A stretch of DNA of 64,000 nucleotides, from NCBI GenBank assembly GCA_049522015.1, contig JBEKOG010000028.1, forward strand, positions 323 through 64,322. Direction: 5' to 3'. A model generated the notes under the pieces. The model had not been told where the DNA came from and made no database searches. It worked only from the letters and a program-made list of their open reading frames with translations. The stretch comes from Verrucomicrobiota bacterium. Lineage in GTDB: Bacteria > Verrucomicrobiota > Verrucomicrobiia > Limisphaerales > UBA11358. The translations under genes were made by a program, and so were the position numbers. Below are positions 24,757 through 60,979 of the stretch, in pieces; within the stretch, counting starts at the first letter, position 1, and every line of letters starts with the position of its first letter.

Positions 24757-26889
24757 ATGCTCACGGCCAAACTGACAAAAAACCAGCTCACCGCCCTCAT
24801 CTGCCTGGCGCTTGCCCTGGTTACAACCGCGCTCTACTGGCCGATTACTCATCACGATTTTGTCAACTTCGATGACGACGATTACATTACCAACAATTCC
24901 CACGTTCAGGCCGGGCTGACCTGGGCCGGGGTGATCTGGGCTTTCCAAACCGGAGCCGCCGCCAACTGGCATCCGTTGACGTGGCTTTCGCACATGCTGG
25001 ATTGCCAGTTGTATGGTTTGAATCCCGGCGGCCATCACTCGACCAATCTGCTTTTTCACGCCGCCAACACTTTGCTGCTGTTCCTTTGGTTGAGGCAAAT
25101 CACCGGAGCCTTGTGGCGGAGCGCTTTCGTGGCGGCCTTGTTCGCCTGGCATCCCTTGCACGTCGAATCAGTGGCGTGGGCGGCTGAACGCAAGGATGTG
25201 TTGAGCGCGTTCTTCTGGATGTTGACATTGATGGCCTACACACGATATGTGACAAGTGACCAGCCTTCGCCACGCTTCGGCACGGCAGGCAAGTGGCGAG
25301 TGACACGAACCGCTTCCTTCTTGTCACGTGTCACATGTCACGTGTCACCTTATTACTGCCTCGCGCTTTTTTTCTTTGCCTGCGGACTGATGTCCAAGCC
25401 GATGGTGGTGACGCTGCCGTTTGTGCTGTTGCTGATTGATTTCTGGCCGCTGAACCGTTTCTCCAGTTTCCAGTTCCAAGTTTCCAGTTCTGAAAAACTC
25501 TCAACTCCGATAAATCGCGAGCAGGCCCTCGACCCTCAACTGCACCCCGAATGCCTTCGGGGCTCAACCAAATCAGCCTTCGGGCTGATTTGTGAGAAAC
25601 TGCCTTTCTTCGCGCTCACAGTGGCAGCCAGCGTTGTGACATATCTTGTGCAAACTTCGGGCCGGGCGCTTTGGTCGTCGGCTGAATTGCCCTTTTCTTC
25701 CCGTGTAGCAAACGCTTTGTGGGCCTACGAGCGTTACATCTCCAAAACATTTTGGCCGGCTGATCTCTCAATTTTTTATCCGCATCCGTATCATTGGCCG
25801 GCCGGTTTGGCGATTGGCGCGGCATTATTGCTGGCCCTGTGGTCGGGGTTGTCCATCTGGCGCGCGCGCCAAAATCCGTATTTGCTCGTTGGCTGGTTCT
25901 GGTTTTTGGGAACGCTCATCCCCACCATCGGCCTGGTGCAGGTCGGCTCGCAATCCATGGCCGACCGTTACATGTATATTCCCAGCGTCGGCCTGTTCAT
26001 TCTGGTGGTGTGGGGCTTAAACGATTTTTTGAACTGGCGTCCCCACTGGCGGCGAATTACGACGTTGGCCGGGGGCGTGGCGCTGGCGGGTTGTTTGGTG
26101 GGCACTGAAATTCAACTGAGTTACTGGCAGAACAGCATAAAACTCTTCCGACATGCCATTGAAGTGACAACCGATAATTTCGTCGCCTACACCTGCCTGG
26201 GCGAAACCCTCAGTGATTTGGGCCTGAAAAAGGAGGCCATGATGCTTTGTGCTGAAGCGGTGAAAATTTCGCCGAACAGCCCGGTGACACAATATAATTT
26301 CGGCATGGCTTTGTTGCAAAACGACAGGCGGGACGAAGCTCTGGCACATCTTGACGCTGCCGGGCGGCTGGCCCCTCACAATTCCGAGATTCAATACAAT
26401 CTTGGCCTGTTTTTGGTGCTGCACAACAAACCGGATGAAGCCACGGGTCATTTCACCGCCGCTCTCGTTGAAAGGCCGGAGTTCGCGGAGGCGCATTACC
26501 ACCTGGCGCAGGCTTTGTCCCAACAACACAAATCAAAGGAAACCATTTTTCATTACCGCGAGGCGTTGCGTCTCAAGCCGGACTTTGCTGACGCGCTCAA
26601 CGAACTTGCATGGATTCTCTCCACCGCTCCCGACTCCGGACTCCGCTCCGGCACGGAAGCCGTTCAACTGGCCAAACGCGCCTGTGAACTGACCCAAAAT
26701 CGGCAGGCGGCTTTTCTCACCACGCTCTCCGCCGCCTATGCGGAAACCGGCCGGTTCCCAGACGCCATTGCCACCGCGCAAATAGCCGGCAAACTTGCCC
26801 AAACCGCCGGGCAGAAGAAAATCGCCGCCCAAGACGGGGAATTGCTGAACCTGTATCAGGCGGGACATCCTTTTCGGGAAACGCATTGA
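24757..26889 (+). CDS. TMTC/PMT-like membrane glycosyltransferase fused to C-terminal TPR repeats (paralog 1)
   Basis: N-terminal FVNFDDDDYITNN, multiple TM helices, and a C-terminal TPR array (AHYHLAQAL..., FADALNELAWIL). Very similar to 26918..29110. Confidence 0.85.
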   Translation: MLTAKLTKNQLTALICLALALVTTALYWPITHHDFVNFDDDDYITNNSHVQAGLTWAGVIWAFQTGAAANWHPLTWLSHMLDCQLYGLNPGGHHSTNLLFHAANTLLLFLWLRQITGALWRSAFVAALFAWHPLHVESVAWAAERKDVLSAFFWMLTLMAYTRYVTSDQPSPRFGTAGKWRVTRTASFLSRVTCHVSPYYCLALFFFACGLMSKPMVVTLPFVLLLIDFWPLNRFSSFQFQVSSSEKLSTPINREQALDPQLHPECLRGSTKSAFGLICEKLPFFALTVAASVVTYLVQTSGRALWSSAELPFSSRVANALWAYERYISKTFWPADLSIFYPHPYHWPAGLAIGAALLLALWSGLSIWRARQNPYLLVGWFWFLGTLIPTIGLVQVGSQSMADRYMYIPSVGLFILVVWGLNDFLNWRPHWRRITTLAGGVALAGCLVGTEIQLSYWQNSIKLFRHAIEVTTDNFVAYTCLGETLSDLGLKKEAMMLCAEAVKISPNSPVTQYNFGMALLQNDRRDEALAHLDAAGRLAPHNSEIQYNLGLFLVLHNKPDEATGHFTAALVERPEFAEAHYHLAQALSQQHKSKETIFHYREALRLKPDFADALNELAWILSTAPDSGLRSGTEAVQLAKRACELTQNRQAAFLTTLSAAYAETGRFPDAIATAQIAGKLAQTAGQKKIAAQDGELLNLYQAGHPFRETH

Positions 26890-26917: not shown

Positions 26918-29110
26918 ATGTCCACAGCCAGACCAACAAGGAACCAGCTTTTTGCGGTTATCTGTCTCATGCTCGCCCTTGTGACATTGGTCGTATATTG
27001 GCCGATTACCCGCCACAACTTCACCAATTTCGATGACGACGGCTACATCACGGGAAATCCGCACGTCAATTCAGGGTTGAGTTGGCCGAACATCCTGTGG
27101 AGTTTCGAACACATTAACGCCGGTTATTGGATTCCGTTGACGTGGATCTCGCACATGGTGGACTGCCAACTGTATGGCTTGAACCCCGGCGGCCATCATT
27201 TGACGAATCTGCTCTTTCACCTCACCAATACTTTGCTGCTGTTCCTGCTGTTGAATGAACTGACCGGCGCCTTGTGGCGCAGCGCTTTCGTGGCGGCGTT
27301 GTTTGCCTGGCATCCGCTGCACGTCGAGTCGGTCGCTTGGGCCTGCGAGCGCAAGGATGTGTTGAGCGCATTTTTCTGGATGCTGACGTTGCTGGCGTAC
27401 GCGCGCTACGTGCGGTGCGTGACCAGTGGCACGTGTCAAGTGACACGAACGGACTCTGCTTCGTCACCCGTCACTCGCCACCCGTCACTTTACTACTTCC
27501 TCGCGCTGTTATTCTTCGCGTGCGGTTTGATGTCCAAGCCGATGGTGGTGACATTGCCATTCGTTTTGTTGCTGCTGGATTTCTGGCCGTTGGAGCGGTT
27601 CAGCGTTCAGCGTTCAGAGGTCAGCGTTCAAAATATGGCACGGTTAATTTTAGAAAAAATTCCGTTCTTCACTTTGGCGGCGGCAGGAAGCGGCGTCGCC
27701 TTTTTTACTCAAAAGGTGGGCGGCGCGGTTTCAGCCGACACATTTTCGCTTCGGCTGGCGAACGTGCTTTGGGCGTATGTGCGTTACATTTCCAAAATTT
27801 TTTGGCCGGTGGATTTGGCCGTCATTTATCCATTTCCGAGCCAGGGGCTTGTCGCTCTGGCCATTGTCGCGGCGCTGTTGCTGGCAATGTGTTCGGGCGC
27901 GTTTATTTTTATAGCGCGCCGCCGGCCTTATTTGTTGGCCGGCTGGTTTTGGTTTTTGGGAACGCTGGTGCCGGCCATCGGCATTGTCCAGGTGGGGTCG
28001 CAATCCATGGCCGACCGTTTTACTTATGTTCCAAGCATCGGGCTTTTTATCCTTGTCGTTTGGAGTGTGAATGACATTTTGATTTCGACTCCGCACAAAC
28101 AAAAAATCGCGGCGCTGCTTGGAACAGCCGCGCTGGTGGGTTGTCTCGCCATAACGTCAATTCAAATAAAATACTGGCGCAGCAGCATCACGCTTTTCCG
28201 CCACGCGCTCGCGGTGACAAGGGATAATTACATCGCCTGCGCCTGTCTCGGCCAGGCGTTGGATGCCATTGGCCAGGAGGATGAAGCTTTGACTCTTTGC
28301 ACCAACGCGGTGCGGATTAAGCCAAACTATCCACCCGGACAATTTTTTCTCGGCATGGTTTTGTTGAAGAAAGGCAAATCCGAGGAAGCGCTCAGTCACC
28401 TGAGCGCCGCGGCCCGGCTCGCGCCGTTTGACACAACGATGCACTATAATTTCGGCAAGGTTTTACTGGATTTCGACCGGCCGCAGGAAGCCGCCGCCTG
28501 TTTTATTACCACTCTCGACAACAACCCGGATTTTCCAGCGGCGCACAACGGTTTGGGGAAGGCTTATTGGAAGCAAGGCAAATTGGACCAGGCCACCAAC
28601 CAGCTTTCCCAGGCCGTGACGCTTGAACCTGACAATCCGCAATTTCATTATGATTTCGGGACCGTTTTGCTCGCAAACTCAAACGTGGACGAAGCCATCG
28701 CTCAATTTTCCGAAGCCTTGCGGCTGAAACCGGATTTTGCGGATGCGCACGGCAATCTGGCTGTAGCTTTCATCAGACAGGGCAGAGCCAGGGAGGCTCT
28801 CATCCATTTTTCCGAAGCGGTTCGACTGCAACCAAACGATCCAGATAGGCGCTTTAACCTTGGCCTCGCCCGGCTCGACAACCATCAGCCAGCCGAGGCC
28901 GCCTTCCAATTTTCCGAAGAACTCCGGCTCACGCCAAACGAAACCAAGGCGCACTACCGTCTCGCGCAGGCGCTGCAACAGCAAAACAAACTGGCCGGCG
29001 CCGTCGAGCATTACCGCGAAGCGCTGCGGCTCACACCGGAATTCCCCGAAGCAAAAGCCGCGCTCGACCAAATCCTTTCCACCAATCCGAATCTGAAAGC
29101 CGAACCTTGA
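26918..29110 (+). CDS. TMTC/PMT-like membrane glycosyltransferase fused to C-terminal TPR repeats (paralog 2)
   Basis: Collinear with paralog 1 (FTNFDDDGYITGN; LYGLNPGGHHLTNLLFH; LFAWHPLHVESVAW; GTLVPAIGIVQVGSQSMADRF). Longer TPR array. Confidence 0.85.
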   Translation: MSTARPTRNQLFAVICLMLALVTLVVYWPITRHNFTNFDDDGYITGNPHVNSGLSWPNILWSFEHINAGYWIPLTWISHMVDCQLYGLNPGGHHLTNLLFHLTNTLLLFLLLNELTGALWRSAFVAALFAWHPLHVESVAWACERKDVLSAFFWMLTLLAYARYVRCVTSGTCQVTRTDSASSPVTRHPSLYYFLALLFFACGLMSKPMVVTLPFVLLLLDFWPLERFSVQRSEVSVQNMARLILEKIPFFTLAAAGSGVAFFTQKVGGAVSADTFSLRLANVLWAYVRYISKIFWPVDLAVIYPFPSQGLVALAIVAALLLAMCSGAFIFIARRRPYLLAGWFWFLGTLVPAIGIVQVGSQSMADRFTYVPSIGLFILVVWSVNDILISTPHKQKIAALLGTAALVGCLAITSIQIKYWRSSITLFRHALAVTRDNYIACACLGQALDAIGQEDEALTLCTNAVRIKPNYPPGQFFLGMVLLKKGKSEEALSHLSAAARLAPFDTTMHYNFGKVLLDFDRPQEAAACFITTLDNNPDFPAAHNGLGKAYWKQGKLDQATNQLSQAVTLEPDNPQFHYDFGTVLLANSNVDEAIAQFSEALRLKPDFADAHGNLAVAFIRQGRAREALIHFSEAVRLQPNDPDRRFNLGLARLDNHQPAEAAFQFSEELRLTPNETKAHYRLAQALQQQNKLAGAVEHYREALRLTPEFPEAKAALDQILSTNPNLKAEP

Positions 29111-36724: not shown

Positions 36725-37216
36725 ATGAACATTACCGTCGCCAACCGTCAGCACGTGCGAAAAATCAACCTGCGGCTGCTGAAAAAAATTGCGAACGCGC
36801 TACTGGCGGAACTGGAGATTGAAAAGGCCGAAATTGGAATCTGCCTCGTCGGCGCGCCGGAAATGACGCGACTCAACGAGACTTTTCTCCGGCATGCCGG
36901 TTCAACGGACGTGATTACGTTTGATTACCGTGACAGCGTGTTGCCGGCATCTTGCCGGCAAATCAAATCAGAACTTCCGGCAGGATGCCGGAAGCACGTT
37001 CACGGCGAGATTTTCATCTGCGTGGACGAGGCGGTTTTGCAGGCGCGGAAGTTTGACACGAGCTGGCAGTCGGAAATCGTCTGCTACATCATCCACGGAG
37101 TTTTGCATTTGGTCGGCTTTGATGATTCGAGTGCGGGTGCCCGGCGCAAAATGAAACGGGAGGAAAACCGCCGGTTGCGTGAAATCACCCGCCGCTTTCC
37201 CTTGAGCAAACTTTGA
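36725..37216 (+). CDS. ybeY: rRNA maturation endoribonuclease YbeY, with an in-frame 66-nt palindromic insertion
   Basis: Zinc motif HGVLHLVGFDD. phoH-ybeY synteny. Confidence 0.92.
   Translation: MNITVANRQHVRKINLRLLKKIANALLAELEIEKAEIGICLVGAPEMTRLNETFLRHAGSTDVITFDYRDSVLPASCRQIKSELPAGCRKHVHGEIFICVDEAVLQARKFDTSWQSEIVCYIIHGVLHLVGFDDSSAGARRKMKREENRRLREITRRFPLSKL
36935..37000. repeat. 66-nt palindromic element (26+14+26), copy inside ybeY
   Basis: agcgtgttgccggcatcttgccggca / aatcaaatcagaac / ttccggcaggatgccggaagcacgtt. A second copy lies at 52123-52188 in proS. Confidence 0.85.
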
Positions 37217-38830: not shown

Positions 38831-39505
38831 ATGCAGGACTTCAAACCACTACACGATGCGATCCTTAAAGGAGATGCGAAGACCGCGAAAGCCACCGCCG
38901 AAGCCGCCCTGGCCGCCGGGACCGACCCGATGAAGCTGGTGCAGGAATACATGATGCCCGCGATGGCCGAGGTGGGCCGGCGATTTGAGTGCAACGAGTA
39001 TTTTGTGCCCGAGTTGCTGCTCGCCGCCCGCGCCATGAAAGCCGCGCTCGAACTCATCCGGCCGCTGCTCGCCGCCGGTGGCGTAAAACCCACGGCACGG
39101 GTCGTCCTCGGCACCGTCAAGGGTGACTTGCACGACATCGGCAAAAATCTGGTAGGCGCCATGCTCGAAGGTGGCGGTTATGAAGTCATTGACCTGGGCG
39201 TCAACGTACCGCCGGAACAGTTCGTGGCGGCGGTAAAGGGAAAAGGTGCCGACATCGTGGCCATGTCCGCGTTGTTGACCACCACCATGCCGGCGATGAA
39301 GACAACGCTTGATGCGCTTCAGCAGGCCGGCGTGCGCCAGCAGGTGAAAGTGCTGGTAGGCGGCGCGCCCATCACGCAAAAATACGCGGACGAAATCGGC
39401 GCCGACGGTTACAGCGAAAGCGCGGCGGGCGCGGTCAACGCCGCCGAAAGGGCCATGGGCCGAGTTTCAAAACAGGCGCCACCCCAAGGCAACAAAACCG
39501 TTTGA
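38831..39505 (+). CDS. Stand-alone cobalamin-binding corrinoid protein (B12-binding cap plus Rossmann domain)
   Basis: DxHxxG motif (GDLHDIGKNLV), SALLTTTM and VLVGGAP motifs of MetH-type B12-binding domains. Confidence 0.88.
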   Translation: MQDFKPLHDAILKGDAKTAKATAEAALAAGTDPMKLVQEYMMPAMAEVGRRFECNEYFVPELLLAARAMKAALELIRPLLAAGGVKPTARVVLGTVKGDLHDIGKNLVGAMLEGGGYEVIDLGVNVPPEQFVAAVKGKGADIVAMSALLTTTMPAMKTTLDALQQAGVRQQVKVLVGGAPITQKYADEIGADGYSESAAGAVNAAERAMGRVSKQAPPQGNKTV

Positions 39506-39750
39506 GCAATCCCCTGGGCGCCTCACATGTTTTGCCAGGGAAAACCCCGGCTGCGATCACGCGTCGCGCCCCGCGAGCGTGAACAAAGGTAATTTCCTGA
39601 TCCGGTTGTAGCGTCGGCGCTGTGCGCCGATTGGGTCAAACCGCCCGCCTACACCATGTCCCGATGCAACAGGCAGGCTCGACGCCACACGAAATCGGGA
39701 CGCAACCCGGATAAAATCCCAATTGTCACGTCGAGCTTTCTAAGGTATTC

Positions 39751-41403
39751 ATGTCACGAGTTATGTCGCATCAAACCGCTGCCCCCAATGGCCTGCCTCC
39801 GCGTCGAATCTCCGAAGTCGCCCGCGAACTGGGCCTTAACACCGAGATCATTCTGCCCCACGGCCATTACATCGCCAAAATCCCACTTGCCGAACTGGAG
39901 GCGAGACGAAATCAGCCCAACGGCCGGCTTGTCCTCGTGACGGCCATGACCCCCACCCCGCAGGGTGAAGGCAAGACCACCGCCACCATCGGCCTCGCTG
40001 ACGCACTCCGCCGACTCGGCAAACGCAGCATGTTCTGCCTGCGCGAACCATCGCTCGGGCCCTACTTCGGTATCAAAGGCGGCGGCACCGGCGGCGGCCA
40101 TGCGCAAGTTGTGCCCGCCGAGGATATCAATCTTCATTTTGTCGGCGACATGTACGCCGTGGAGAAGGCCAACAACCTCCTCTGCGCCATGGTGGACAAC
40201 CATCTCCAGCACGGCAACGAACTCGGACTCGACCCGCGCCGCATCGTCCTGCGCCGGGTCATTGACCTGAACGAACGCTCGCTGCGCGACATCGTCATCG
40301 GCCTGGGCGGCCCCAAAAACGGGGTGCCGCGGCGCGACGGCTTCAACATCACGCCCGCCTCCGAAGTCATGGCCATCTTGTGCCTCGCTACGGATTTTAG
40401 CGATCTCGGCGAGCGCATGACCAGAATGGTTGTCGGTTTCACCTACAAGGGCGAACCAGTCCGCGCCGAGGCCATGCAGGCCGTGGGCGCGATGCAGGTG
40501 TTGCTGCGCGACGCCATTCATCCGAACCTCGTGCAGTCCTTGGAAGGCACGCCAGCCTTCGTCCATGGCGGCCCGTTCGCCAATATCGCTCAGGGCACGA
40601 ACACCTGCGTGGCCACGCGCCTCGCGTTGAAACTGGCCGATTATGTCGTCACCGAGGCCGGGTTCGCCACCGACTTGGGGGCGGAAAAATTCTTTCACAT
40701 CAAATGCCGCATTGCCGGGCTGAATCCGGCCGCGGCGGTCATCGTGGTCACCACCAAGGCCATCGCCTACCACGGCGGCTTTACGGACAGCGGCGGGCTT
40801 GGCAACCTCGCCAAGCACATCGAGAACATCCGCCTCTTCGGTTTGGATCCCGTGGTGTGCATTAGCAACTTTCCAGATGACAAGCCGGCGGACTACGCAC
40901 GGATCATCAAATTCTGCACCAAACTAGGCGTGGAAGCGGTCGTGTCCGAACACTTCGACAAAGGCGGCGCCGGCGCGACAGAACTGGCCGCCGCCGTGCT
41001 GCGCACCGTCCACCGGAGCCGGCGAAAGAAACTCCGTTTTCTCTACCCGCTCGCCGCGCCGATCGAGAAGAAGATCGAAACGCTGGCGACCCAGATCTAC
41101 GGCGCGGATGGCGTGGATTATGACCGGGGTGTACAAAGCAGTATTGGGGTGTTCAACAAACATGGGTTCGGCAATCTGCCGATTTGCGTGGCCAAAACCG
41201 CCATGTCACTCTCAGACGATCCCGAACGGCGCGGCCGGCCGAGAGGCTTCCGGATCAAGGTGAACGAACTGCGCCTTTCCGCAGGGGCGGGTTTCATCGT
41301 GGCGGTTTGCGGCAATATCGTGACCATGCCCGGATTGCCGAAGGTGCCCGCCGCAGCGCACATGAAGATGATCTCCGGCAAACGGGCAACGGGTCGCACC
41401 TGA
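39751..41403 (+). CDS. fhs: Formate--tetrahydrofolate ligase
   Basis: TPTPQGEGKTT P-loop, LHFVGDMYAV..., FANIAQG. Full length, ~550 aa. Confidence 0.95.
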   Translation: MSRVMSHQTAAPNGLPPRRISEVARELGLNTEIILPHGHYIAKIPLAELEARRNQPNGRLVLVTAMTPTPQGEGKTTATIGLADALRRLGKRSMFCLREPSLGPYFGIKGGGTGGGHAQVVPAEDINLHFVGDMYAVEKANNLLCAMVDNHLQHGNELGLDPRRIVLRRVIDLNERSLRDIVIGLGGPKNGVPRRDGFNITPASEVMAILCLATDFSDLGERMTRMVVGFTYKGEPVRAEAMQAVGAMQVLLRDAIHPNLVQSLEGTPAFVHGGPFANIAQGTNTCVATRLALKLADYVVTEAGFATDLGAEKFFHIKCRIAGLNPAAAVIVVTTKAIAYHGGFTDSGGLGNLAKHIENIRLFGLDPVVCISNFPDDKPADYARIIKFCTKLGVEAVVSEHFDKGGAGATELAAAVLRTVHRSRRKKLRFLYPLAAPIEKKIETLATQIYGADGVDYDRGVQSSIGVFNKHGFGNLPICVAKTAMSLSDDPERRGRPRGFRIKVNELRLSAGAGFIVAVCGNIVTMPGLPKVPAAAHMKMISGKRATGRT

Positions 41404-41500
41404 TCACCGCCGGCGGCGAAACCAATTTCTGATCGGCAGCCGGCAACGCCCGTCACCGGCGGCGGGTCCGCACCGGGTTTTGACCCGGGACTTGCCTCAA

Positions 41501-42379
41501 TTACGAATAAAATTCCTTCACCCTCATGATGGTGTCAAAGCCATCCAGTTCCAGCACATCCTTCAAGCATTGCATGGCCGGATGGTCCTCCGGCAAGAGC
41601 GAATAATTCCGCTTCACCGAGCCAATGATGGTGTTAAATCCCATCGGCACGGCCAGGGTCAGAAAAGCGCTCTCCAGCGGCCCTTTTACCGGCGAACCAT
41701 CCGCCCGTTTCGACGGCAGCATCACGGTAAAATTGCTCAGCCCCACGGACATGTTTACACCTTTGAGATCGGCATCCTGATGAATCAGTTTGATCGCATT
41801 GATCAATCGCTTGAAATCGCCTTCCGCATCGCTTCCAATCGGAATGATGCCCGGGTCGAGAATGATCTGATCGTTCGTTGCATTGTTGATGCGTTCCCGC
41901 GCGATATTGACCATGACCTTCGCGGTGGCATGCGTTTCCCCGGCGGTCTTGTTCATTTTCAAGACGCCATTTTGGTCCACTCCTTCGGTAATCAGCAGCA
42001 CGGGAACAAAGGGCTGCTTTGCCTGGATGTCAAACATTTCCAATCGCGCCTGGGAAATTGAATTCAATATGGGCTTGCGTCCCCCGGCACGCCCTGGATC
42101 GTACGCTTCCAGCCCGGCGGCGGCGATTTCCGGGTCAGGAGTGTCAATCGAAAGGGGCAGCGAAATGTGTTGTTGGATTTTTCGCACAACGTCCGCCATA
42201 AATCCAGGGGAACGCAGGCCGACATTCACGTCGATGTAGGCAGCACCGTTTTCCCCTTGGGATTTCGCCAGCTCGATGATGCCGGCCATGTCGTTTTTTT
42301 CGAATAACACATGGGTGGAAGGGACGGAATCATTTATTGATTCGCCGATGATCGTAAGGCCCGGGATGGTCATTGCCAT
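41501..42379 (-). CDS. Methyltetrahydrofolate:corrinoid methyltransferase (pterin-binding domain protein, MetH/AcsE-like)
   Basis: TIIGESINDS and AAYIDVNVG motifs of the pterin-binding TIM barrel. ATG at 42379 (MAMTIPGL) is preferred over 42427. Confidence 0.8.
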   Translation of the reverse strand: MAMTIPGLTIIGESINDSVPSTHVLFEKNDMAGIIELAKSQGENGAAYIDVNVGLRSPGFMADVVRKIQQHISLPLSIDTPDPEIAAAGLEAYDPGRAGGRKPILNSISQARLEMFDIQAKQPFVPVLLITEGVDQNGVLKMNKTAGETHATAKVMVNIARERINNATNDQIILDPGIIPIGSDAEGDFKRLINAIKLIHQDADLKGVNMSVGLSNFTVMLPSKRADGSPVKGPLESAFLTLAVPMGFNTIIGSVKRNYSLLPEDHPAMQCLKDVLELDGFDTIMRVKEFYS

Positions 42380-42618
42380 GAATGCTTGTTGCTGACAAAT
42401 GGTTGGCAGGGACAAACAGAAAAACAATCAAATTCAATCTTGGACAGGCACTTTCCCGCACCGTCGATCCCCAAATCCAGAATCTGCGCGACTTCGCGCT
42501 TGATCCCGGCCCAGCGGATGACATCATGGCCGTGATAATGTTGAAAACGTACCCGACCAAAAGGGGTTCTCTCTTGACCGTGCAGGCATTAAAATCAATT
42601 TCTCATCAGTGTAAATAG

Positions 42619-44202
42619 ATGCAAACATTGCAGGAAAAACTGTCCCAGACTTCCCAGTTTCTCGTCGGGACCGAAGTGGTTTCCGTGCGCGGTTCGATGG
42701 CTGAACAGAGCGCGGTAAAGGCAGGCGCTTTTGCCAAACAACTCGTCAAGTGTCCGGCCATTGATTGGATTTCGATTACCGACAACGCCGGCGGCAATCC
42801 GCAGTTGGCACCCCAGGCCTTGGGCAAACCCATCCTGGATGCCGGCAAGGAAGTCGTCATTCATCTCACCTGCAAGGACCTCAATCGCAACGGCCTGGAG
42901 AGTGAAGCCTGGCTCCTGAACAGCGAAGGGTTTCACAGTATTCTGGCCATGACCGGTGATCATCCATCCTCGGGCATCGAAGGTCTTGCGAAGCCGGTGT
43001 TCGACATTGATTCCGTCGGCCTGATTTCGATGTTGAACAAAATGAACCAGGGTTTCGATCCGAAGGACGGCGATGGCAACAGCAAGGGGCAGCGGCTGGA
43101 AAAAACCCGGTTCTGCATCGGAGCCGTCACGACGAATTACAAACTGCGCGAGGGCGAAGTAATGCCGCAATACTTCAAACTTCGGAAGAAAATCGAGGCC
43201 GGCGCGCAGTTCATCATCAACCAGATCGGCTTCGACTCCCGCAAGGACAGCGAACTGCGGCTTTACATGGATCAGCACGGGATGAAGCCTGTCCCGCTGA
43301 TCGGCAATGTCTATCTGTTAAACCCCCGGGTGGCCCAACTCTTTCACGAGGGCCGGATTCCCGGCATCGTCCTGACGCAACCGCTGCTGGACTTGTGCCT
43401 GAAGCACGGGCAGTCGGCCGATGGCGGCCGGTCGTTCTTCTGCGAATTCGCCGCCAAGCGAATCGCCATCTATCGTGGTCTGGGCTATCGCGGCGTGTAC
43501 CTGGCCGGCATGCACAATTTTGCCGTTATTGAAAGAATCCTGGAAATCGAACGCACGTTCGCTCCTGACGACTGGAAACAATTCGCGCGGGAAATCAGGT
43601 TCTCCCGGCCCGGCGAATATTTCCACTACGCCGAAAATCCGGCGACGGGACTGGCCGATGTCGCCGCCCCAAATCCGGGCGCCAAAATAAAATCAAAACA
43701 CGTCGGCCCCGTTTATCATCTGTCCAAGTGGACCCATGACCTCATGTTCAGCCCGGGCCACGCGCTGACGAACTGTGGCGCGTATCTTTGCCGGCATTCG
43801 GCAGACCCCAGTCAAGGTCCCAAACCGATGCGGGTTTTGGAGCATCTCAGCAAGGCCGTCCTGTTCCAGTGCAAGGACTGCGGCGATTGTTCGCTCCCGG
43901 AAATCGCGTTTCTGTGTCCTGAATCCCAATGCGCGAAGAACCAGCGCAATGGTCCGTGCGGCGGCACGCGCGAAGGCCGCTGCGAAGTGGACCGCTATGG
44001 CGATTGCATCTGGCTGCGCGCCTACGAACGTCTGAAACACGAAGGCAGAGAACAAGACTTGTTGCAGCATGTGCTCGTAGTACAAAACCAGGGACTACGC
44101 GGCACGTCTTCCTGGGCCAACTTCTGGCTCGGCCGCGATCACACGGCAAAAAAGGACCATCCCACCCCGCCCGCTGAAGCGGATTCCACCGCCAAACATT
44201 AA
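42619..44202 (+). CDS. Methylenetetrahydrofolate reductase fused to a Cys-rich MetV-like C-terminal domain
   Basis: The N-terminal ~300 aa is MTHFR-like (ISITDNAGGNP, HLTCKD, LAMTGD). The C-terminus has CKDCGDCSLPEIAFLCPESQCAKNQRNGPCGG, which I recognise as the MTHFR_C/MetV-type motif. Confidence 0.8.
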   Translation: MQTLQEKLSQTSQFLVGTEVVSVRGSMAEQSAVKAGAFAKQLVKCPAIDWISITDNAGGNPQLAPQALGKPILDAGKEVVIHLTCKDLNRNGLESEAWLLNSEGFHSILAMTGDHPSSGIEGLAKPVFDIDSVGLISMLNKMNQGFDPKDGDGNSKGQRLEKTRFCIGAVTTNYKLREGEVMPQYFKLRKKIEAGAQFIINQIGFDSRKDSELRLYMDQHGMKPVPLIGNVYLLNPRVAQLFHEGRIPGIVLTQPLLDLCLKHGQSADGGRSFFCEFAAKRIAIYRGLGYRGVYLAGMHNFAVIERILEIERTFAPDDWKQFAREIRFSRPGEYFHYAENPATGLADVAAPNPGAKIKSKHVGPVYHLSKWTHDLMFSPGHALTNCGAYLCRHSADPSQGPKPMRVLEHLSKAVLFQCKDCGDCSLPEIAFLCPESQCAKNQRNGPCGGTREGRCEVDRYGDCIWLRAYERLKHEGREQDLLQHVLVVQNQGLRGTSSWANFWLGRDHTAKKDHPTPPAEADSTAKH

Positions 44203-44296
44203 AACCGAACCGCCCGATCCGGCCTGACTTTCGCTGGAAAGTAGCCGGAAAGCATCGCACCGGTGACGCTGGAGACGGGGTGGTTCAAACACAGGC

Positions 44297-45829
44297 TCAA
44301 GCCGGGAAACGCATTTCCTCCGCGTAGGTGTCTTGAAAATCCTTGTCCTCATTGAGCGCCACGTGTTCGGTGCGGCGCGCGACGGCGTCCCAGCCGGCCG
44401 GGTCTTCGAACAACGCCCGTTTCGCCCCCAGCAGCGCGGTGTTGCCGGCGGGAACGACGCGATGAATGGGAACGCGCAGCAGACCAATCCGTTGGGCGCT
44501 GGTCCGGTTGACATAATTGCCGAACGCACCGGCCAGGTGAAGCTGGTGGATGTCATCGAGTGAAGCGCCGAATCGCGCTGCCAGCATCCGCAGTCCGGTG
44601 GCGATGGCCCCTTTGGCCATCTGCAATTCGCGCACGTCCGCCGCCGAAAGGGTCACGGCGCCGGCCAGCGGCATTCCGCGATCGGACGTCAGCCGGCCAT
44701 CGGGCCGGATCCAGCCGAGTTCCAAGCCCGCCGCCACCGCGTCCACCAGTCCGCTGCCGCACAATCCGCGTGGCGCGCCACCGCCAATCACGCGGCACGC
44801 CACCGAGCCATTTTGCGCGCGTACCTCGCTGATGGCGCCCGTGGCCGCGCGCATGCCCATCGAGATGCGCGCCCCCTCGAACGCCGGCCCCGCCGCCGTG
44901 GAGGTGCACAACATCCGCTGGTGGTTGCCGACCACCACCTCGCCGTTGGTGCCGAGGTCCATCAGCGCCGTCAATTCGCGGCTTTCGTGCAAACCGGTGG
45001 CCACGATGCCGGCCAGAATGTCCGAACCAACAAAGCCGCCGATGCACGGCAGGAATTCCACCACCGTCTTCTCCGGCAGATTCCAACCCAACTCACGCGC
45101 CGAAAACCGGAACCGTCCCGGCTGTTGTGGCTCGAAGGGATGCCCGGCCAGCGGTGCGACGCTGATGCCGCAGAACAGGTGGTGCATGACGGTGTTGCCG
45201 ACAATAATTATCTTATTCAAATCATTACCGGCATCCGAACTTTTGTCCCACGTGGGACAAAGTTTTGCACGGCGCGAAACCAGTTGGCTTGCCATTCCGC
45301 CGAGCTGTTCGCGCACCTGCCGCTGCAAATCCGGCTGGCCGCCACATAATGCAAATTCGACGCGGCTCATGATGTCGCCGCCGTGACGGGCCTGCGCGTT
45401 CAACGCCGTGACCACCGACAGCACGCCGCCGGTCTTCAAATCGAGGAGTTGCGCGGCAATGGTGGTGGTGCCCAGGTCAATGGCCACGCCGAGGCCCTCG
45501 CGCGGCGCAAACTTGAAAGTGGACTGATCACTCAGGATGGGCATCTCCCATTGCGCAAGCTCGAGTTTGAGATCACCCGTGATGGAATGCCGGCACGCCA
45601 GACGCCAGCCACCGGCAAGCTCCGCGCCCGTCAGCATTTTTTTTTCCTCCTCGCCGACAGGCAGAATGCCTTTCAAGGCTTTGACGCGGCAGCCTTTGCA
45701 ACGCCCGCGTCCACCGCAGGGGAACTCGACTCCCTGCGCGAAAAGAACGTCCTGCAACTGTGTGCCGGAAGCGACCTCCAGTTTGAGATCGGCGGGCGAA
45801 AGTTCGAGGGTATGCGTTGATGGGGTCAT
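44297..45829 (-). CDS. Corrinoid reductive activase (RACo/RamA-like: 2Fe-2S ferredoxin domain plus ASKHA/DUF4445 ATPase)
   Basis: N-terminal plant-type ferredoxin cysteines (CGGRGRCKGCRV) and ASKHA phosphate motifs (DLGTTTIAAQL, DLGTNGEVV). Confidence 0.8.
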   Translation of the reverse strand: MTPSTHTLELSPADLKLEVASGTQLQDVLFAQGVEFPCGGRGRCKGCRVKALKGILPVGEEEKKMLTGAELAGGWRLACRHSITGDLKLELAQWEMPILSDQSTFKFAPREGLGVAIDLGTTTIAAQLLDLKTGGVLSVVTALNAQARHGGDIMSRVEFALCGGQPDLQRQVREQLGGMASQLVSRRAKLCPTWDKSSDAGNDLNKIIIVGNTVMHHLFCGISVAPLAGHPFEPQQPGRFRFSARELGWNLPEKTVVEFLPCIGGFVGSDILAGIVATGLHESRELTALMDLGTNGEVVVGNHQRMLCTSTAAGPAFEGARISMGMRAATGAISEVRAQNGSVACRVIGGGAPRGLCGSGLVDAVAAGLELGWIRPDGRLTSDRGMPLAGAVTLSAADVRELQMAKGAIATGLRMLAARFGASLDDIHQLHLAGAFGNYVNRTSAQRIGLLRVPIHRVVPAGNTALLGAKRALFEDPAGWDAVARRTEHVALNEDKDFQDTYAEEMRFPA

Positions 45830-46578
45830 GCTGGTTCCACACCGATGAGTTGCGCGTTATGACGCAGGCCAACTCGCTCGCCCGGCTTCAACTTGAGAAA
45901 TTCGCGGTCATTCCAATCCGCGTTCAACAATCGCCGCAGCCAGCCCAGGTCGCCGGGGAGCTTTTCAAATTTCCAGCCGTGTGCCCGGGCGTTTTTCCGC
46001 GCAGCTTTCTCCCATTTTGCCGCTTCAGGCACCGGCGGGGCGATGAAGGCAAGCCGTTCATAGTGCCGGGTGAGGTTGTTCAATTGTTCGAGCAGATAAC
46101 CGGCATTTTCATCGCCGTATTTTTCAGCCAGTTGTTCGCGTGTGACGGTGGAGCCGGGTCCGAAGGGAAAATTCTGCTGGCGGACATCGCCATTGGCCGG
46201 TGAATTCTCCAGCCAGCCCGCGCTCTGAAAGTAGGTGCCCGGTTGTGTTTCCAGTTGCGCGAGATAACACCGGCTGCTGCCGAGAAGCATCCCGATGCAG
46301 TCGTGCGCGCGCGGGATGGCAACGGGCAGCGCCCGCGCCTCCAGCCCCACAATGCCGCGATTGCAAAGCCCGTAACCAATGGCAATGGCATCACATTGAC
46401 CGGTGGTCACTCCATCAATCGCGCCTTGAAGCGCGGCGCGTAGATTTTCAGCGGACCCTTCGTGGAGTCCCATTTCCAGGTGCTGGAAAGTGACCTCGGT
46501 TTTCGCCCCGGCGGCAAGCATTTCCAGTTCCCGTTGGAAGACAGGACAGGCGATGACATGCAACCGCAGGCGGTTCAT
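45826..46578 (-). CDS. DUF1638-domain protein
   Basis: LHVIACPVFQRELE start and ~250 aa size fit DUF1638. 4-nt overlaps with both neighbours. Confidence 0.65.
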   Translation of the reverse strand: MNRLRLHVIACPVFQRELEMLAAGAKTEVTFQHLEMGLHEGSAENLRAALQGAIDGVTTGQCDAIAIGYGLCNRGIVGLEARALPVAIPRAHDCIGMLLGSSRCYLAQLETQPGTYFQSAGWLENSPANGDVRQQNFPFGPGSTVTREQLAEKYGDENAGYLLEQLNNLTRHYERLAFIAPPVPEAAKWEKAARKNARAHGWKFEKLPGDLGWLRRLLNADWNDREFLKLKPGERVGLRHNAQLIGVEPA

Positions 46579-47474
46579 AAATTATGCTTTTCGCGGAGCA
46601 GTTTGTGCAGTTCGCTGATAAATTCCGGCGACGTTCCGCAGCAACCACCGATGAAATTCGCGCCGGCTTCGAGAACCGCCGGAACGTGACCGGCAAATTC
46701 CACCGCCGTCGTCGTATAAACAGATTTGCCGTCCCTGATTTGCGGCAGCCCGGCGTTGGCCTTGATCCAGACCGGGTGTCCGCCCGCCGCGGCTTTCAAC
46801 CGCGCACAAATTTTCACGAACCCCGCGATGCCCTGGCCGCAATTCGCGCCGACGACATCGGCTCCGGCTTCCAGAAGACCTGCCACCGCCTGTTCCGGTG
46901 TGGCGCCCATCATCGTGCGGTCTTTGTCCTTGCCGGAATCGAACACCATGCAGGCGACCACCGGCAAACCGGCGGCTTTCGCCGCCGTTGTGGCAATTCT
47001 GGCTTCCTCCAAATCCAGCATGGTTTCCACGACCAGCCCGTCGGCCCCGCCGCGCGCCAAAGCTTGCGCCTGTTCGGCGAACGCGGCGCGCAATTCATCT
47101 TCGGTCACGTCACCGTTCATGAGCATTTTGCCGCCTGGCCCAATCGAGCCAAAAACCAGTGCGCATTTGTTCGCCGCTTCGCGCGAGATGCGGGTGCCCG
47201 CTTCGTTGATTTCTTTGACGCGATCCGCGCCGCCACCCCCGGCCAGGCGCAGGCGGTTGGCGCCGAACGTGTTCGTCAAAATAATTTGCGAACCGGCTTC
47301 GACGTAGGCACGCGCGACGGCGGTGACTTTTTCAGGACGGGTCAGGTTCCAGAGGTCCGGCACTTCACCCGGCGCGAGTCCGCGCGCCTGGAGTTGCGTG
47401 CCCCAAGCGCCATCTGTGAGCACCGGGCCTTGGGCGATCAATTGTTGAATGAGTGGATTAAGCGTCATAACCAA
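46575..47474 (-). CDS. Homocysteine S-methyltransferase domain protein (MetH N-terminal module, stand-alone)
   Basis: LTDGAWGTQL, ILTNTFGAN, GANCG, and GGCCGTSPEFI (zinc-binding cysteines) of the Hcy-binding TIM barrel. Confidence 0.85.
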   Translation of the reverse strand: MVMTLNPLIQQLIAQGPVLTDGAWGTQLQARGLAPGEVPDLWNLTRPEKVTAVARAYVEAGSQIILTNTFGANRLRLAGGGGADRVKEINEAGTRISREAANKCALVFGSIGPGGKMLMNGDVTEDELRAAFAEQAQALARGGADGLVVETMLDLEEARIATTAAKAAGLPVVACMVFDSGKDKDRTMMGATPEQAVAGLLEAGADVVGANCGQGIAGFVKICARLKAAAGGHPVWIKANAGLPQIRDGKSVYTTTAVEFAGHVPAVLEAGANFIGGCCGTSPEFISELHKLLREKHNL

Positions 47475-47656
47475 GGGCTTTCACCGGTTGTGTTACCAGG
47501 CTGGTTTCAGTTCATCCAAATATTTTCGGTTCTTCCAGCAAAATTCGCCGCGCCCGTTCACGTGCCCGGCCTTTTGGCGGTGCCAGCCGGAACAAAGGGC
47601 TTTCCGAAACAATGTCCTAATGGCATGATTATTGCGCAATTTTGGAATCGGTTGAA

Positions 47657-50002
47657 ATGAAAAAAAAGATTTTCAGATTCTCCACATTGCGAATGCAGTT
47701 GGTTGGCAGCGTGTTTTTGCTCATCACTCCGGCCTGGTTGCTGATGTATATTTTTGACCTGCCAATGAGCGGGTTTGTGGTGGGGGTATTGGCGCTGGCA
47801 GCCTCGTGGTTCGGCGGGGAACACTTCATTTTACGCGAGGTGCGCGCCTTGTCCAGTGTGGCCCAGCGGATTGCAGATGGAGATTTGAGCGCCCGCACCG
47901 GACTGAAACCCTCGGAAAACGAACTCGGTCAACTCACAAAGGGTTTTGACCTGATGGCCGAATCGCTGGAGCGGCATGCCAAGAATCTCGAAAGCGCGGA
48001 AAAAAACCTGTTGAATCGCACGTTCCAGCAAACCGTTGTCGCCGCGCTCGGACAATTTGCGCTGACCAACAGTGACCTCGATGCGCTGCTGAATCAAACC
48101 GTCATGCTTGTGGCGCAAACACTGGGCGTGGAATACTCCGCCGTGTTCGAGCAATTGCTGGCCGGTTCACTGCGGCTGCAAGCCGGCGTTGGCTGGAAAC
48201 CGGAGTACAACCGGCAGACTTCCCTGCCCGGAAATGAGGATTCCCCGATTGTCTCTGCTTTGAAATCCGGCGACCCCGTTGTCATCGCCGATCTGAAGGC
48301 CGAAACGCGAATTTCCGCGTCGCCGTTTCTGGCCGAGCACGGTGTTGTCAGCGGTATCACCGTCGCCATTCCCACTCACGACCGGCCCTATGGAATGCTG
48401 GGCATTTACAGCACGCACGGGCGGAAATTCAATTCGGACGAAGTGCAATTTCTCATGGCCGCCGCCACCGCCGTCGGCCTGGCCGTCGAGCGCAAACGGG
48501 CCGATGCCGAACTGCAAAAACTCGCCGCGTTCGTCCAGTTGAATCCGGACGCAGCGATGGAACTGAACGAAAACGGGACCATCACCTATTTCAACGAAGC
48601 CGCGCAACAACTCGCCGCCTCCGTGCAAAGAAATCAGCCTGGTGAAATATTGCCACCGGACATTGACCGCATCATCCGCGAATGCCTCGCCAGCGGACAA
48701 AGCAAGGTGCGCCAGGAAATCAAAATGGAAGGGCGCACATTTTCGTGGTCGGTCCATCCCGTCTTGCCGAGCAACGTGGTGCATTGCTACATCGAAGACA
48801 TCACCGAACGGCTGAGTTTGGAGGCGCAGTTGCGTCAGGCGCAAAAGATGGAATCCATCGGCCAGCTCGCCGCCGGTGTTGCGCATGACTTCAATAACAT
48901 GCTCACGATCATTCAGGGGCATTCCAGTTCGCTGCTCGCCAGGCCGACATTGCCGCCGGAGGTGGTTGACTCGGTTCAAGCCGTCTATTTTGCCGCCGAA
49001 CGCGCCGCGGGTCTCACGCGCCAATTGCTCATGTTCAGCCGCAAGAATGTCATGCAGCCCGAGCTGCTCGATTTGCAGAAAGTTGTCGGTAACATGAGCA
49101 AGATGTTGGAGCGTCTCCTCGGGGAAACCATCACGCTTGAATTTCAGCCGGCGGTGGAAAATCCATTTGTTCAGGGCGACTGCGGCATGATCGAGCAGGT
49201 CGTGATGAACCTTTCCCTCAACGCCCGCGACGCCATGCCGCGCGGCGGCAGGCTGACCATCGGCGTCGAGACCATGATCATTGATGCCGCTTTCATCGAA
49301 ACCCATCCCCAGGCGCATGCGGGACGCTTTGTTCGTTTGCGCGTCACGGACACAGGTATCGGCATGGATTCTGCCACGCTGGGCCGCATCTTCGAACCGT
49401 TTTTTACCACGAAAGACATCGGCAAGGGCACCGGCCTCGGCCTCGCGACTGTTTATGGCATTATCAAACAGCACGAAGGCTGGCTCGAAGTGAACAGCGA
49501 ACCCGGCAAAGGCAGCACGTTCGACGTGTTTCTTCCCGCCAGCGACAAAGTGCCCGCCTTCGCAGAAGAAGCGGCCCCCGCTGCCCCTGTCGCCGGCGGC
49601 TCGGAAACCATTCTCATCGTTGAAGACGAACCGATCCTGCGGAGCATGGCCCGCGACATCCTCGAAGAGTGCGGCTATCGGATTCTGGAAGCGTCATCCG
49701 GCAAGGAAGCGCTTGACGTATGGAATCAGCGCGCGAATGAAATTGATTTGCTCCTGACCGACATGGTGATGCCCGATGGCATTTCCGGCGCGGACCTCGT
49801 CGAAAAATTGCAGACCAGCCAGCCCCGCCTGAAGGTTGTCTTTACCAGCGGCTATACCGCCAATGAAGTGAACCAGAAAATGCTGGCCCGGACCCGCGCG
49901 AGCTTTCTCGCAAAACCCTACACCCACGCCGAACTCGCCAAAACCGTCCGCGATTGCCTCGACCAAAACAACAGCAGTGATGCGGCGGCTGTGGATAATT
50001 GA
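47657..50002 (+). CDS. Hybrid sensor histidine kinase/response regulator (TM-HAMP-GAF-PAS-HisKA-HATPase-REC)
   Basis: H-box AAGVAHDFNNMLT, the G-boxes DTGIGM and GTGLGLA, and a C-terminal receiver (ILIVEDEP...LLLTDMVMP...K). Confidence 0.92.
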   Translation: MKKKIFRFSTLRMQLVGSVFLLITPAWLLMYIFDLPMSGFVVGVLALAASWFGGEHFILREVRALSSVAQRIADGDLSARTGLKPSENELGQLTKGFDLMAESLERHAKNLESAEKNLLNRTFQQTVVAALGQFALTNSDLDALLNQTVMLVAQTLGVEYSAVFEQLLAGSLRLQAGVGWKPEYNRQTSLPGNEDSPIVSALKSGDPVVIADLKAETRISASPFLAEHGVVSGITVAIPTHDRPYGMLGIYSTHGRKFNSDEVQFLMAAATAVGLAVERKRADAELQKLAAFVQLNPDAAMELNENGTITYFNEAAQQLAASVQRNQPGEILPPDIDRIIRECLASGQSKVRQEIKMEGRTFSWSVHPVLPSNVVHCYIEDITERLSLEAQLRQAQKMESIGQLAAGVAHDFNNMLTIIQGHSSSLLARPTLPPEVVDSVQAVYFAAERAAGLTRQLLMFSRKNVMQPELLDLQKVVGNMSKMLERLLGETITLEFQPAVENPFVQGDCGMIEQVVMNLSLNARDAMPRGGRLTIGVETMIIDAAFIETHPQAHAGRFVRLRVTDTGIGMDSATLGRIFEPFFTTKDIGKGTGLGLATVYGIIKQHEGWLEVNSEPGKGSTFDVFLPASDKVPAFAEEAAPAAPVAGGSETILIVEDEPILRSMARDILEECGYRILEASSGKEALDVWNQRANEIDLLLTDMVMPDGISGADLVEKLQTSQPRLKVVFTSGYTANEVNQKMLARTRASFLAKPYTHAELAKTVRDCLDQNNSSDAAAVDN

Positions 50003-50008
50003 CGCCGC

Positions 50009-50998
50009 ATGGAAACCCGCGCGCAGGGAGATGTCACGATCGCCATTTTGAGCGACATCCATTACGCTGGTCCCGCCGAGCGGGCCCGCGGCGAAGATTA
50101 TGAATTTCGCACCATCGTCAATCCCCTGCTCCGCGCGGTCGCGCGCGCCTACCGGCATTTGATCTGGATGCGTCATCCGCTCGACCAGGGACGGCAACTC
50201 GACCGTTTTCTGGCCGAAATCGGGCCGTTGGATTATCTCGTGGCCAATGGGGATTATCCGTGTGACACCGGGTTTGTGGGCGTAAGCGACACCGGCTCGT
50301 TTCAAAGCGCGCAGGACTGTCTCGGCAAGCTCCGCGCGAAATTCGGCGACCGCGCGCGGTTCACCATTGGCGACCATGAACTTGGGAAACTGACCCTGTT
50401 TGGCGGGAAGGGAGGAATGCGGCTCGCCAGTTGGCATTGCGCCACGCAGCAGCTTGGCCTGCAACCGTTCTGGAAACTGGCCATCGGCCGTTACCTGCTC
50501 ATGGGCGTGGCCTCGCCCCTCATCGCCCTGCCCGCAAACAAGGCGGACATGCCGCCGGAGGAGTGGCCGGAATGGCAGCCATTGCGCGAGGCGCACCTCG
50601 CCGAAATCCGCGCTGCCTTTGATGCGCTCCAACCGGAGCAACGCGTGTTATTGTTCTGTCACGACCCCACGGCCCTGCCGTTTCTGTGGCGCGAGGAACC
50701 AGTGCGCCGCCGGTTGCCGCAGGTGGAACAGACCATCATCGGGCATCTGCACACGCGGCTGATTTTATGGAAAAGCCGGGTGCTGTCGGGGATTCCGCCC
50801 ATCCGGTTTCTGGGCCGGAATGTCAACCGTTTCAGTTCAGCGCTGCACGAGGCGCATCTTTGGTGGCCATTTCGGGTGCGGCTCTGCCCGGCCTTGTCCG
50901 GCACCGAACTGCTGAACGACGGCGGTTATTACACCGTGCAAATTGATCCCACAGCGAACCACCCGGCGCGATTCATCTTTCATCCGTTGCCACGGTAA
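50009..50998 (+). CDS. Calcineurin-like metallophosphoesterase
   Basis: IAILSDIHYAG, NGDY, CHDP and IIGHLH motifs. Confidence 0.75.
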   Translation: METRAQGDVTIAILSDIHYAGPAERARGEDYEFRTIVNPLLRAVARAYRHLIWMRHPLDQGRQLDRFLAEIGPLDYLVANGDYPCDTGFVGVSDTGSFQSAQDCLGKLRAKFGDRARFTIGDHELGKLTLFGGKGGMRLASWHCATQQLGLQPFWKLAIGRYLLMGVASPLIALPANKADMPPEEWPEWQPLREAHLAEIRAAFDALQPEQRVLLFCHDPTALPFLWREEPVRRRLPQVEQTIIGHLHTRLILWKSRVLSGIPPIRFLGRNVNRFSSALHEAHLWWPFRVRLCPALSGTELLNDGGYYTVQIDPTANHPARFIFHPLPR

Positions 50999-55385: not shown

Positions 55386-55724
55386 CGTGTTCGTGCAGCT
55401 TGTGGTCGCAAAGAAAACCTGAGTTTTCATATTTTTGCCTGCGATTTGATTGCCACCAGCTTTGATCACAATCTGTCAGGTATCGTCTCAATCCCGACAT
55501 TGGCTACTCTTGCAAAATTGCAGGCTTGAATCAAGATTTTATGATGGAAAACATGGATTATCCGCCTGATGTGGCGTAGCGGCGCGGGATCCTAAATCCG
55601 CAGATTACGCCGATTGCACAGATTCGTTATCTGCGTCATCCGCGAAATCTGCGGATGAACTCGCCGAGGCAGTGCCTGGCACTCCCATTGTTCTGCGGCG
55701 CTCTGCCGAGACGCTGCTACGTTC

Positions 55725-60976: not shown

Positions 60977-60979
60977 GAT

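Follow-up and report, generated by a model that had tools for sequence, protein, structure and literature searches.

The window, by which we mean the whole 64-kb stretch of DNA analysed here, carries two genes, ybeY and proS, each of which holds an in-frame palindromic element of a repeat family that we call family A (Table 1). The product of proS is a ProRS of the bacterial type and includes an INS editing domain (best PDB match 5UCM, 1.7e-154). Each element contributes 22 in-frame residues, which correspond to YbeY residues 71-92 (SVLPASCRQIKSELPAGCRKHV) for copy 1 and to ProRS residues 242-263 (QRASGILPEEQTGTAGGTPAAR) for copy 2, and the peptides given in the first-pass annotation agree with these. 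The intact frames suggest that both inserts are translated as part of the two proteins. As to the hosts themselves, the E. coli-type YbeY metal motif is H-x3-H-x5-H, and in the present clade the motif, at 37094-37126 in the window, reads HGVLHLVGFDD, with Asp replacing the third His; D134 is invariant among 32 aligned orthologues. The spacing between proS and ybeY is about 4 kb in a relative (L197, 11731-15516), which has a histidine kinase gene, recO and a DUF502 gene between them, as against 15 kb in the window (38831-50998), where recO and proS are separated by about 11 kb of additional genes.

The two 66-nt hairpins, each with 26-nt arms and a 14-nt loop, are present where the first-pass annotation had placed them, and they are about 80% identical to each other. 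A 27-nt pattern for the right arm has exactly two matches in the 64 kb (0.00 in shuffles), and a degenerate arm pattern gives eight matches in the window, all within copies 1 and 2, against an expectation of 0.10. The RNA folds are strong, with -51.5 kcal/mol for copy 1 (z -7.8) and -42.7 kcal/mol for copy 2 (z -5.5); neither copy is followed 3′ by the T run of an intrinsic terminator, and an Rfam scan of the window gave 0 matches at the gathering score. A general hairpin scan of the window (90-nt windows, ≤ -42 kcal/mol) was too unspecific in such GC-rich DNA to count further elements.

How is the element oriented in its two hosts? The earlier reading was that both copies share a plus-strand orientation, so that the element would be sense in ybeY and antisense in proS. 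The first half of that reading loses its footing in the near-perfect palindromy of the element, copies 1 and 2 being identical at 52 of 66 positions directly and at 53 of 66 as reverse complements, which decides nothing either way; the arms alone give 46/52 and 44/52, respectively, and the 14-nt loops 6/14 and 9/14. Because the arms are palindromic and both carry a TCY triloop when read from the outer CGTG end (TCT or TCC in 136 of 165 arms among the matches listed, each read from that end), direction can be taken only from the central 12-14-nt loop. When 30 family spacers of 10-22 nt were mutually oriented and the window loops scored against them, the copy 1 loop preferred the plus strand by 25 to 4 and the copy 2 loop the minus strand by 17 to 7. 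The central loops thus favor one and the same element orientation relative to both genes, contrary to the sense-antisense claim, and if anything ybeY and proS appear to read the same strand of the element. The robust difference between the copies is the reading frame: ybeY enters the element as AGC-GTG-TTG (S-V-L-P-A-S-C-R-Q...) and proS as CAA-CGT-GCT (Q-R-A-S-G-I-L-P-E...). In copy 2 the YbeY-type frame is likewise open (NVLPASCRKNKLELPAGRRQHV), and copy 1 is open in four of its six frames.

A perfect 12-nt palindrome, CCGGCATGCCGG, lies at 36889-36900, 35 nt upstream of the ybeY element, and is similar to the element core CCGGCATCTTGCCGG. It encodes an "RHAG" variant where many relatives have "KHKG", and the roughly 45 nt around it diverge more between the window and a close relative (L198) than any other part does. 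It may be what is left of an arm, or a conversion tract.

Table 1. Host genes, palindromic elements and transposase remnant in the window
Feature	Position	Strand	Remarks
ybeY host gene	36725-37216	+	163 aa; Pfam YbeY 8e-25
Family-A REP doublet, copy 1	36935-37000	+ (ybeY)	AGCGTGTTGCCGGCATCTTGCCGGCAAATCAAATCAGAACTTCCGGCAGGATGCCGGAAGCACGTT
Left REP unit of copy 1	36937-36961	+	CGTG tag, 9-bp stem TTGCCGGCA/TGCCGGCAA, TCT triloop
Right REP unit of copy 1, inverted	36974-36998	-	CGTG-CTTCCGGCA-TCC-TGCCGGAAG on the minus strand
proS host gene	51083-52912	-	609 aa; Pfam tRNA-synt_2b, tRNA_edit, HGTP_anticodon
Family-G doublet in proS	51783-51851	-	GGAGCGCCGGCCTCCGGCACGGC...; 23-nt arms, 100% complementary
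Family-A REP doublet, copy 2	52123-52188	- (proS)	AACGTGCTGCCGGCGTCCCGCCGGCAGTTCCAGTTTGTTCTTCCGGCAAGATGCCGGAAGCACGTT
Family-G doublet, intergenic	60667-60735		directly after M16 peptidase stop codon
RAYT C-terminal remnant	60734-60898	-	55 codons; EYWDTFMRDEEQERKAVRYIENNPIKAKL...; found with E. coli RayT by tblastn
Family-G doublet, intergenic	60907-60979		abuts RAYT remnant and aconitase stop codon
Aconitase gene	60980-63979	-	two in-frame hairpin inserts
Nested hairpin in aconitase gene	61433-61549	-	117 nt, in frame, -72.5 kcal/mol, about residues 811-849
Family-G doublet in aconitase gene	63330-63398	-	in frame, 23 residues, near residue 195

The family-A unit is a stem-loop of 25-27 nt, (C)AA-CGTG-CTKCCGGCR-TCY-YGCCGGMAG, in whose 25-nt arm the CGTG tag is followed by a 9-bp stem (CTKCCGGCR/YGCCGGMAG) and a TCY triloop, the tagged stem-loop of a REP. 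Two such units face each other with their tags on the outside and an AT-rich spacer between them (1-43 nt among the matches listed). Base pairing is conserved where the bases are not: in the 165 arms among the matches listed, stem positions 7-23 are G-C in 121, T-A in 34 and mismatched in 10, and stem positions 13-17 are A-T in 102, G-C in 58 and mismatched in 5. Covariation at these two positions thus preserves the stem of the arm. Outside the CGTG tag, conservation is limited to (C)AA. Since this is all that is conserved beyond the tag and there are no direct repeats, the doublet unit is AA plus core plus TT, which makes 66 nt in the window.

The arm pattern, scanned against 185,579 species genomes, returned at least 114 stretches, and 95 of the 114 carry Verrucomicrobiota, Limisphaerales or Pedosphaera labels (among the matches listed, to which the metagenome-assembled genome (MAG) CAWBHS01 contributes many loci). 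Within 0.87 Mb of related genomes, 60 inverted pairs of 51-93 nt were counted among the matches listed, each arranged as a REPIN would be, and the window copies, which fold strongly, are of the same form. Family A is common in these soil Verrucomicrobia and is dispersed and abundant among related MAGs; the 64-kb window holds only two copies of it. The census relies on the genome loci, at least 114 in number, because short low-complexity peptides fall below the reach of protein searches: at that limit, a representative-protein search with a 32-residue ProRS segment gave 0 matches at E ≤ 0.001, and a homologous-protein search with the two peptides concatenated gave no scored candidate.

Could family A be a classical MITE instead, derived by deletion from a DDE-type insertion sequence and moved by cut-and-paste? 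Bacterial MITEs such as Correia/NEMIS, ERIC and Nezha are likewise short, non-coding elements with terminal inverted repeats, present in many copies and sometimes intragenic. They create target-site duplications, however, and derive from DDE insertion sequences, whereas no flanking direct repeats accompany the family-A doublets at any tested offset from 0 to 4, as expected of Y1/HUH transposition, and a DDE origin is not seen. Moreover, each supposed terminal repeat is itself a covarying stem-loop, and the sole transposase found flanked by family-A arms is of the Y1/RAYT type. We therefore regard a MITE origin as highly improbable.

That transposase came from a tblastn search of all loci with E. 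coli RayT, used instead of a listing of open reading frames near arm clusters, which contained too many spurious frames to be informative; it gave three matches, in the window and in two relatives (L091 and L195). L091 is a locus from the MAG that has the most family-A loci among the matches listed. Its ORF has a HUH motif (MPNHVHVLV) and a tyrosine motif (FWQDEYFDH), lacks an obvious start codon, and matches Pfam Y1_Tnp (6.3e-08, 33.2 bits against a cut-off of 23), NCBIfam REP_Tyr_transpos (5.3e-21; 75 bits, slightly below the cut-off of 80) and PDB 4ER8 (TnpA-REP, 3.6e-05). Three family-A doublets precede the ORF, and an arm and a further doublet follow it. This arrangement is that of a REPtron, its RAYT-like gene belonging to a related MAG. 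Within the 64 kb of the window, no RAYT that is both intact and bracketed by family-A arms was seen. Together with the lack of target duplications and the published biochemistry of RAYTs, the related-MAG REPtron suggests that family A is mobilized by a RAYT.

The window itself has a fragment of such a gene, associated with a second palindromic family, G. The fragment covers positions 108-146 of the 146-position REP_Tyr_transpos profile (NCBIfam, 4.2e-07), matches the L091 RAYT by BLASTP (8e-07), and lies exactly between two family-G doublets in the spacer between the convergent M16 peptidase and aconitase genes; the stretch 60667-60979 is a decayed REPtron. The orthologous spacer of L195 (3880-4140) has a longer RAYT remnant (1.7e-14). 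Family G, too, enters genes. Its doublet in proS is in frame and encodes 23 residues (about residues 354-376) inside the editing domain, and both L195 and L197 differ from the window at the two insert sites of aconitase. Repetitive DNA of other kinds is also present in the window, namely a gene for a BspA-type leucine-rich-repeat protein (53748-55469, minus strand; Pfam LRR_5, 6.6e-68), which is composed of tandem DNA repeats of 312 nt and 69 nt (54123-55172), and two paralogous adjacent TPR-repeat genes (24757-26889 and 26918-29110) that are 69-78% identical over several hundred nucleotides.

In our view, the element found in ybeY and proS likely belongs to the mobile palindromic repeats of the REP/REPIN type; it would be non-autonomous, be moved by a RAYT and survive in tolerant loops. 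REP and REPIN elements with their RAYTs occur in E. coli and Pseudomonas, and REPINs and RAYTs were described by Bertels and Rainey (2011; PMC3116915). Family A works like a REPIN. It shares with that system a 25-nt tagged stem-loop unit, inverted doublets that form a longer hairpin, the lack of target-site duplication, and a RAYT-like gene flanked by units (L091). It departs from it in three respects. First, its tag is CGTG/GTGC, within (C)AACGTGC, and the GTAG/CGTC of the described REP superfamilies is absent, although families B and E, which occupy the same YbeY slot in relatives, do have GTAG. Second, at least five families share the same loops among close relatives. Third, REPs are predominantly extragenic, whereas 27 of the 60 family-A doublets, or about 45% and both window copies included, lie in Pfam-confirmed genes (among the matches listed).

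This last count also bears on the first-pass annotation, for which copies that were overwhelmingly intergenic, in combination with pseudogene hosts, would have told against its proposal of a repeat fit for harmless insertion into genes; the family is not distributed in that way, and both host ORFs are intact, with conserved catalytic motifs and preserved synteny. Among the matches listed, 32 of the 60 doublets lie within ORFs that stay open for 60 codons or more to either side, and the 27 Pfam-confirmed cases are a subset of these. According to Pfam, the hosts comprise a class-II aminoacyl-tRNA synthetase, a class I/II aminotransferase, AcrB, FtsK, MetH (same site in four MAGs), PheT (two sites within one gene), SASA esterase, ValRS, class II ribonucleotide reductase, agmatine deiminase, DUF58 (two MAGs), glycogen debranching enzyme (two MAGs), GcvP, two class-III aminotransferases, HypF, DUF885, a C-methyltransferase and ThuA. 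The pheT gene, at L034 3025-5724 of a related MAG, has its two in-frame doublets at 4009-4076 and 5017-5085. That the genic copies are artefacts of assembly or annotation, or sit in pseudogenes, has next to no probability in our judgment: these are metagenome assemblies, in which repeats may be misassembled, but the same in-frame insert appears in YbeY across independent assemblies (P0001-4, P0006, P0010, P0023, L115 and L200) and in 17 clusters of ProRS, in addition to the intact ORFs, motifs and gene order just mentioned.

With orthologues collapsed to independent hosts, the CGT-GCT entry frame, which yields Q-R-A-A-G-I/V-L/P-P-A (QRAAGILPA...), is strongly preferred, with about 16 independent hosts among the matches listed, as against four for the YbeY-type frame AAC-GTG (N-V-L-P-A-S-C-R-Q) and one or two for ACG-TGC (T-C-C-R-H-L-A-G). 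The peptide of the CGT-GCT frame has no cysteine and many small residues. Is the element, then, adapted to being translated? The first-pass annotation had proposed a repeat selected, or filtered, for harmless insertion into genes, and of these two terms filtering is supported and selection is not. Among the matches listed, intragenic copies have on average 4.44 of their six frames open, against 4.52 for the other copies, and shuffled-spacer controls have 4.25 and 4.07; as open frames are not above the loop-shuffled controls, filtering is indicated, not adaptation. The openness of the frames arises because the GC-rich arms happen to lack stop codons, which occur in just five of 120 arms (among the matches listed). 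Lengths that are a multiple of three, with the AA/TT ends added, are found in 14 of 27 intragenic copies and 12 of 33 other copies among the matches listed, an enrichment that is modest and inflated by orthologous copies, so that we make no claim on multiples of three.

Where in the proteins do the inserts fall? When YbeY is compared with its PDB homologues 1OZ9, 1TVI and 7Y7O, the insert coincides precisely with a gap or with a loop whose length varies. An AlphaFold2 (AF2) model of YbeY built with 32 orthologues (mean pLDDT 84.4, about 90 outside the insert) places it between strands 63-67 and 91-99, with a pLDDT of 42-51 within the insert and below 50 at residues 79-88; the insert is thus predicted to be disordered. 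For ProRS, the AF2 model made with 35 close orthologues was poor (mean pLDDT 39.8), and insert positions were for that reason taken from PDB sequence alignments. They put the family-A insert in the linker that leads to the INS editing domain, at a point where the P. aeruginosa enzyme is 13 residues shorter, and the alignment breaks at the second doublet, that of family G, with query residues 350-390 set against chain residues 347-364.

Might a peptide in such a position have been co-opted, for example through the Cys-Arg pairs of the YbeY insert (SCRQ...GCRK) adding a metal or RNA contact near the zinc site? The ybeY frame does encode two cysteines, and YbeY orthologues with an overall identity of just 75-88% have type-A peptides that are almost the same. 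This conservation, however, is that of the repeat family itself; furthermore, unrelated peptides occupy the same slot in relatives with 91% identical flanks, and the insert is predicted to be disordered. Co-option of the peptide is accordingly very unlikely in our view.

The same slots hold other sequences in relatives. YbeY orthologues that are 70-98% identical have unrelated peptides in the insert loop. When the DNA of this loop, between TDVITF and GEIF, was typed in 80 metagenome loci (L115-L194), relatives were found to have at least five unrelated palindromic families (A-E), simple tandem repeats or short loops. Besides family A, these are the GTAG-tagged family B (AACGTAGGACAGGC; GTAGGACAGGCG...CGCCTGTCCTAC), the palindromic repeat C, family D (GGAGTTCCGCC...GGAACTCC), the GTAG-tagged family E (GGTAGGGCGGGC; GGTAGGGCGGGC...GCGCGCCCTACC), tandem repeats of units such as CGGAATT, GCGGAGT and AAAGTCC, and hairpin-free loops of 36-51 nt. 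Orthologues with 85-91% flank identity differ in which of these they hold, and loop type does not go with flank similarity: L115 (family A) has flanks 90% identical to those of L119 (family E) and 85% identical to those of the window (family A). The window (family A) and L198 (family B) are 91% identical across ybeY, and their elements occupy the same alignment columns, between TTTGATTAC plus 6 nt and CACGGCGA. The ybeY of L199 has a short allele at the insert slot.

ProRS follows the same pattern at two sites. At the first, the family-A insert is present in 17 of 121 orthologues (82-100% identical), the remainder having GIPKTAAREVGAA or simple-repeat peptides; the alternative allele of this proS site holds 39 nt of other sequence in place of a clean empty site and so gives no proof of a simple insertion event. 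The second site has at least eight variants across the 121 orthologues, including a short KSRDIS form; the short allele of L197 has 54 nt fewer and the family-G site empty, and L196 has a related doublet with compensatory changes in its arms. On a neighbor-joining (NJ) tree of ProRS, parsimony requires at least 24 and at least 41 state changes for the two sites, counts that are probably too high because the tree is poorly resolved and recombination is likely; the site states are highly homoplastic on this tree, and the two sites assort independently. Together, the loop contents of YbeY and ProRS point to rapid turnover, recombination, or both.

These comparisons also bear on whether the hairpin is kept for a function at the mRNA level, be it slowing of the ribosome for co-translational folding, protection of the message, or a processing site within the phoH-ybeY operon. 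Any strong hairpin would then suffice, which would account for different families in one slot, and the stems are indeed very stable (-40 to -65 kcal/mol, z down to -7.8) and maintained by covariation, and many orthologues of YbeY and of ProRS have a hairpin at the corresponding position. Yet close relatives have the hairpin-free short loops or the simple tandem repeats instead, the covariation is family-wide and not particular to genic copies, and family A also occurs in intergenic DNA and in over 20 genes that are unrelated to one another. The MetH copies shared among MAGs, moreover, show arm decay of up to four mismatches, and there is no Rfam match to the window. We thus find an mRNA-level function quite unlikely.

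For the REP/REPIN-type mobile repeat that we favor, the following course of events can be envisaged. Most likely, a RAYT, which is a Y1/HUH tyrosine transposase, acts in trans and copies or moves the element as single-stranded DNA, a mechanism that would leave no target-site duplication. Insertions would occur at many places, and the genic ones would persist only if the frame is kept, if no stop codon falls in that frame, and if the loop tolerates about 20 extra, probably disordered, residues. In the window, the YbeY loop between the two strands and the ProRS linker ahead of the editing domain would be such permissive sites, and the inserted peptides would be by-products with no required function. 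Such permissive slots would be recolonized or overwritten quickly, which would leave close relatives with different families at one position.

A further step would be to regard the permissive loops as preferred landing or replacement sites, beyond the passive survival of random insertions, a reading that we think unlikely. A slot that once held a RAYT-type element might retain features for excision and re-insertion, and the loops of essential proteins (YbeY, ProRS, aconitase and MetH) might be rewritten repeatedly by whichever REP family is active. If this were true, it would amount to a built-in generator of loop diversity in housekeeping proteins, and the loops would offer a natural system in which REPIN targeting could be measured against selection.

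Translated palindromes inside genes have precedents. The Rickettsia palindromic elements (RPEs), which Ogata et al. are said to have reported in 2000 and 2002, are palindromes that lie in frame in housekeeping genes, and they are the classic example of a translated palindrome. RPEs are translated, occur in surface loops, and have been read as selfish DNA tolerated by the protein. Family A resembles them in being inserted in frame in conserved genes at permissive loops, but differs in its hosts, which are free-living soil or peat Verrucomicrobiota as opposed to obligate intracellular bacteria of another phylum, in its shorter unit, and in its link to a RAYT-type transposase. Intragenic REPs, for their part, are documented in several species, with the highest numbers in Opitutus terrae (Verrucomicrobia), where GTAG-tagged REPs occur, and in Rickettsia conorii; more than half of such inserts are dimers that encode 20-30 residues, and different REPs are found at about one recB site in two Xanthomonas species (Di Nocera et al. 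2013; PMC3733652). Translated intragenic palindromes are thus already known, and they are unusually frequent here.

For the biology of the group, the finding does not introduce a new kind of system; it provides a data-rich test of selfish hairpin DNA against protein tolerance. It explains odd low-complexity segments in conserved proteins, such as "RAAGILPA...GKMPAAR" and "GRAGSPLPA...RARPT", and cautions against reading them as functional motifs. In Limisphaerales-type Verrucomicrobiota, REP/REPIN-like palindromic repeats occur at such a density that nearly half of the sampled copies lie inside conserved enzymes (among the matches listed), and several repeat families re-use the same protein loops.
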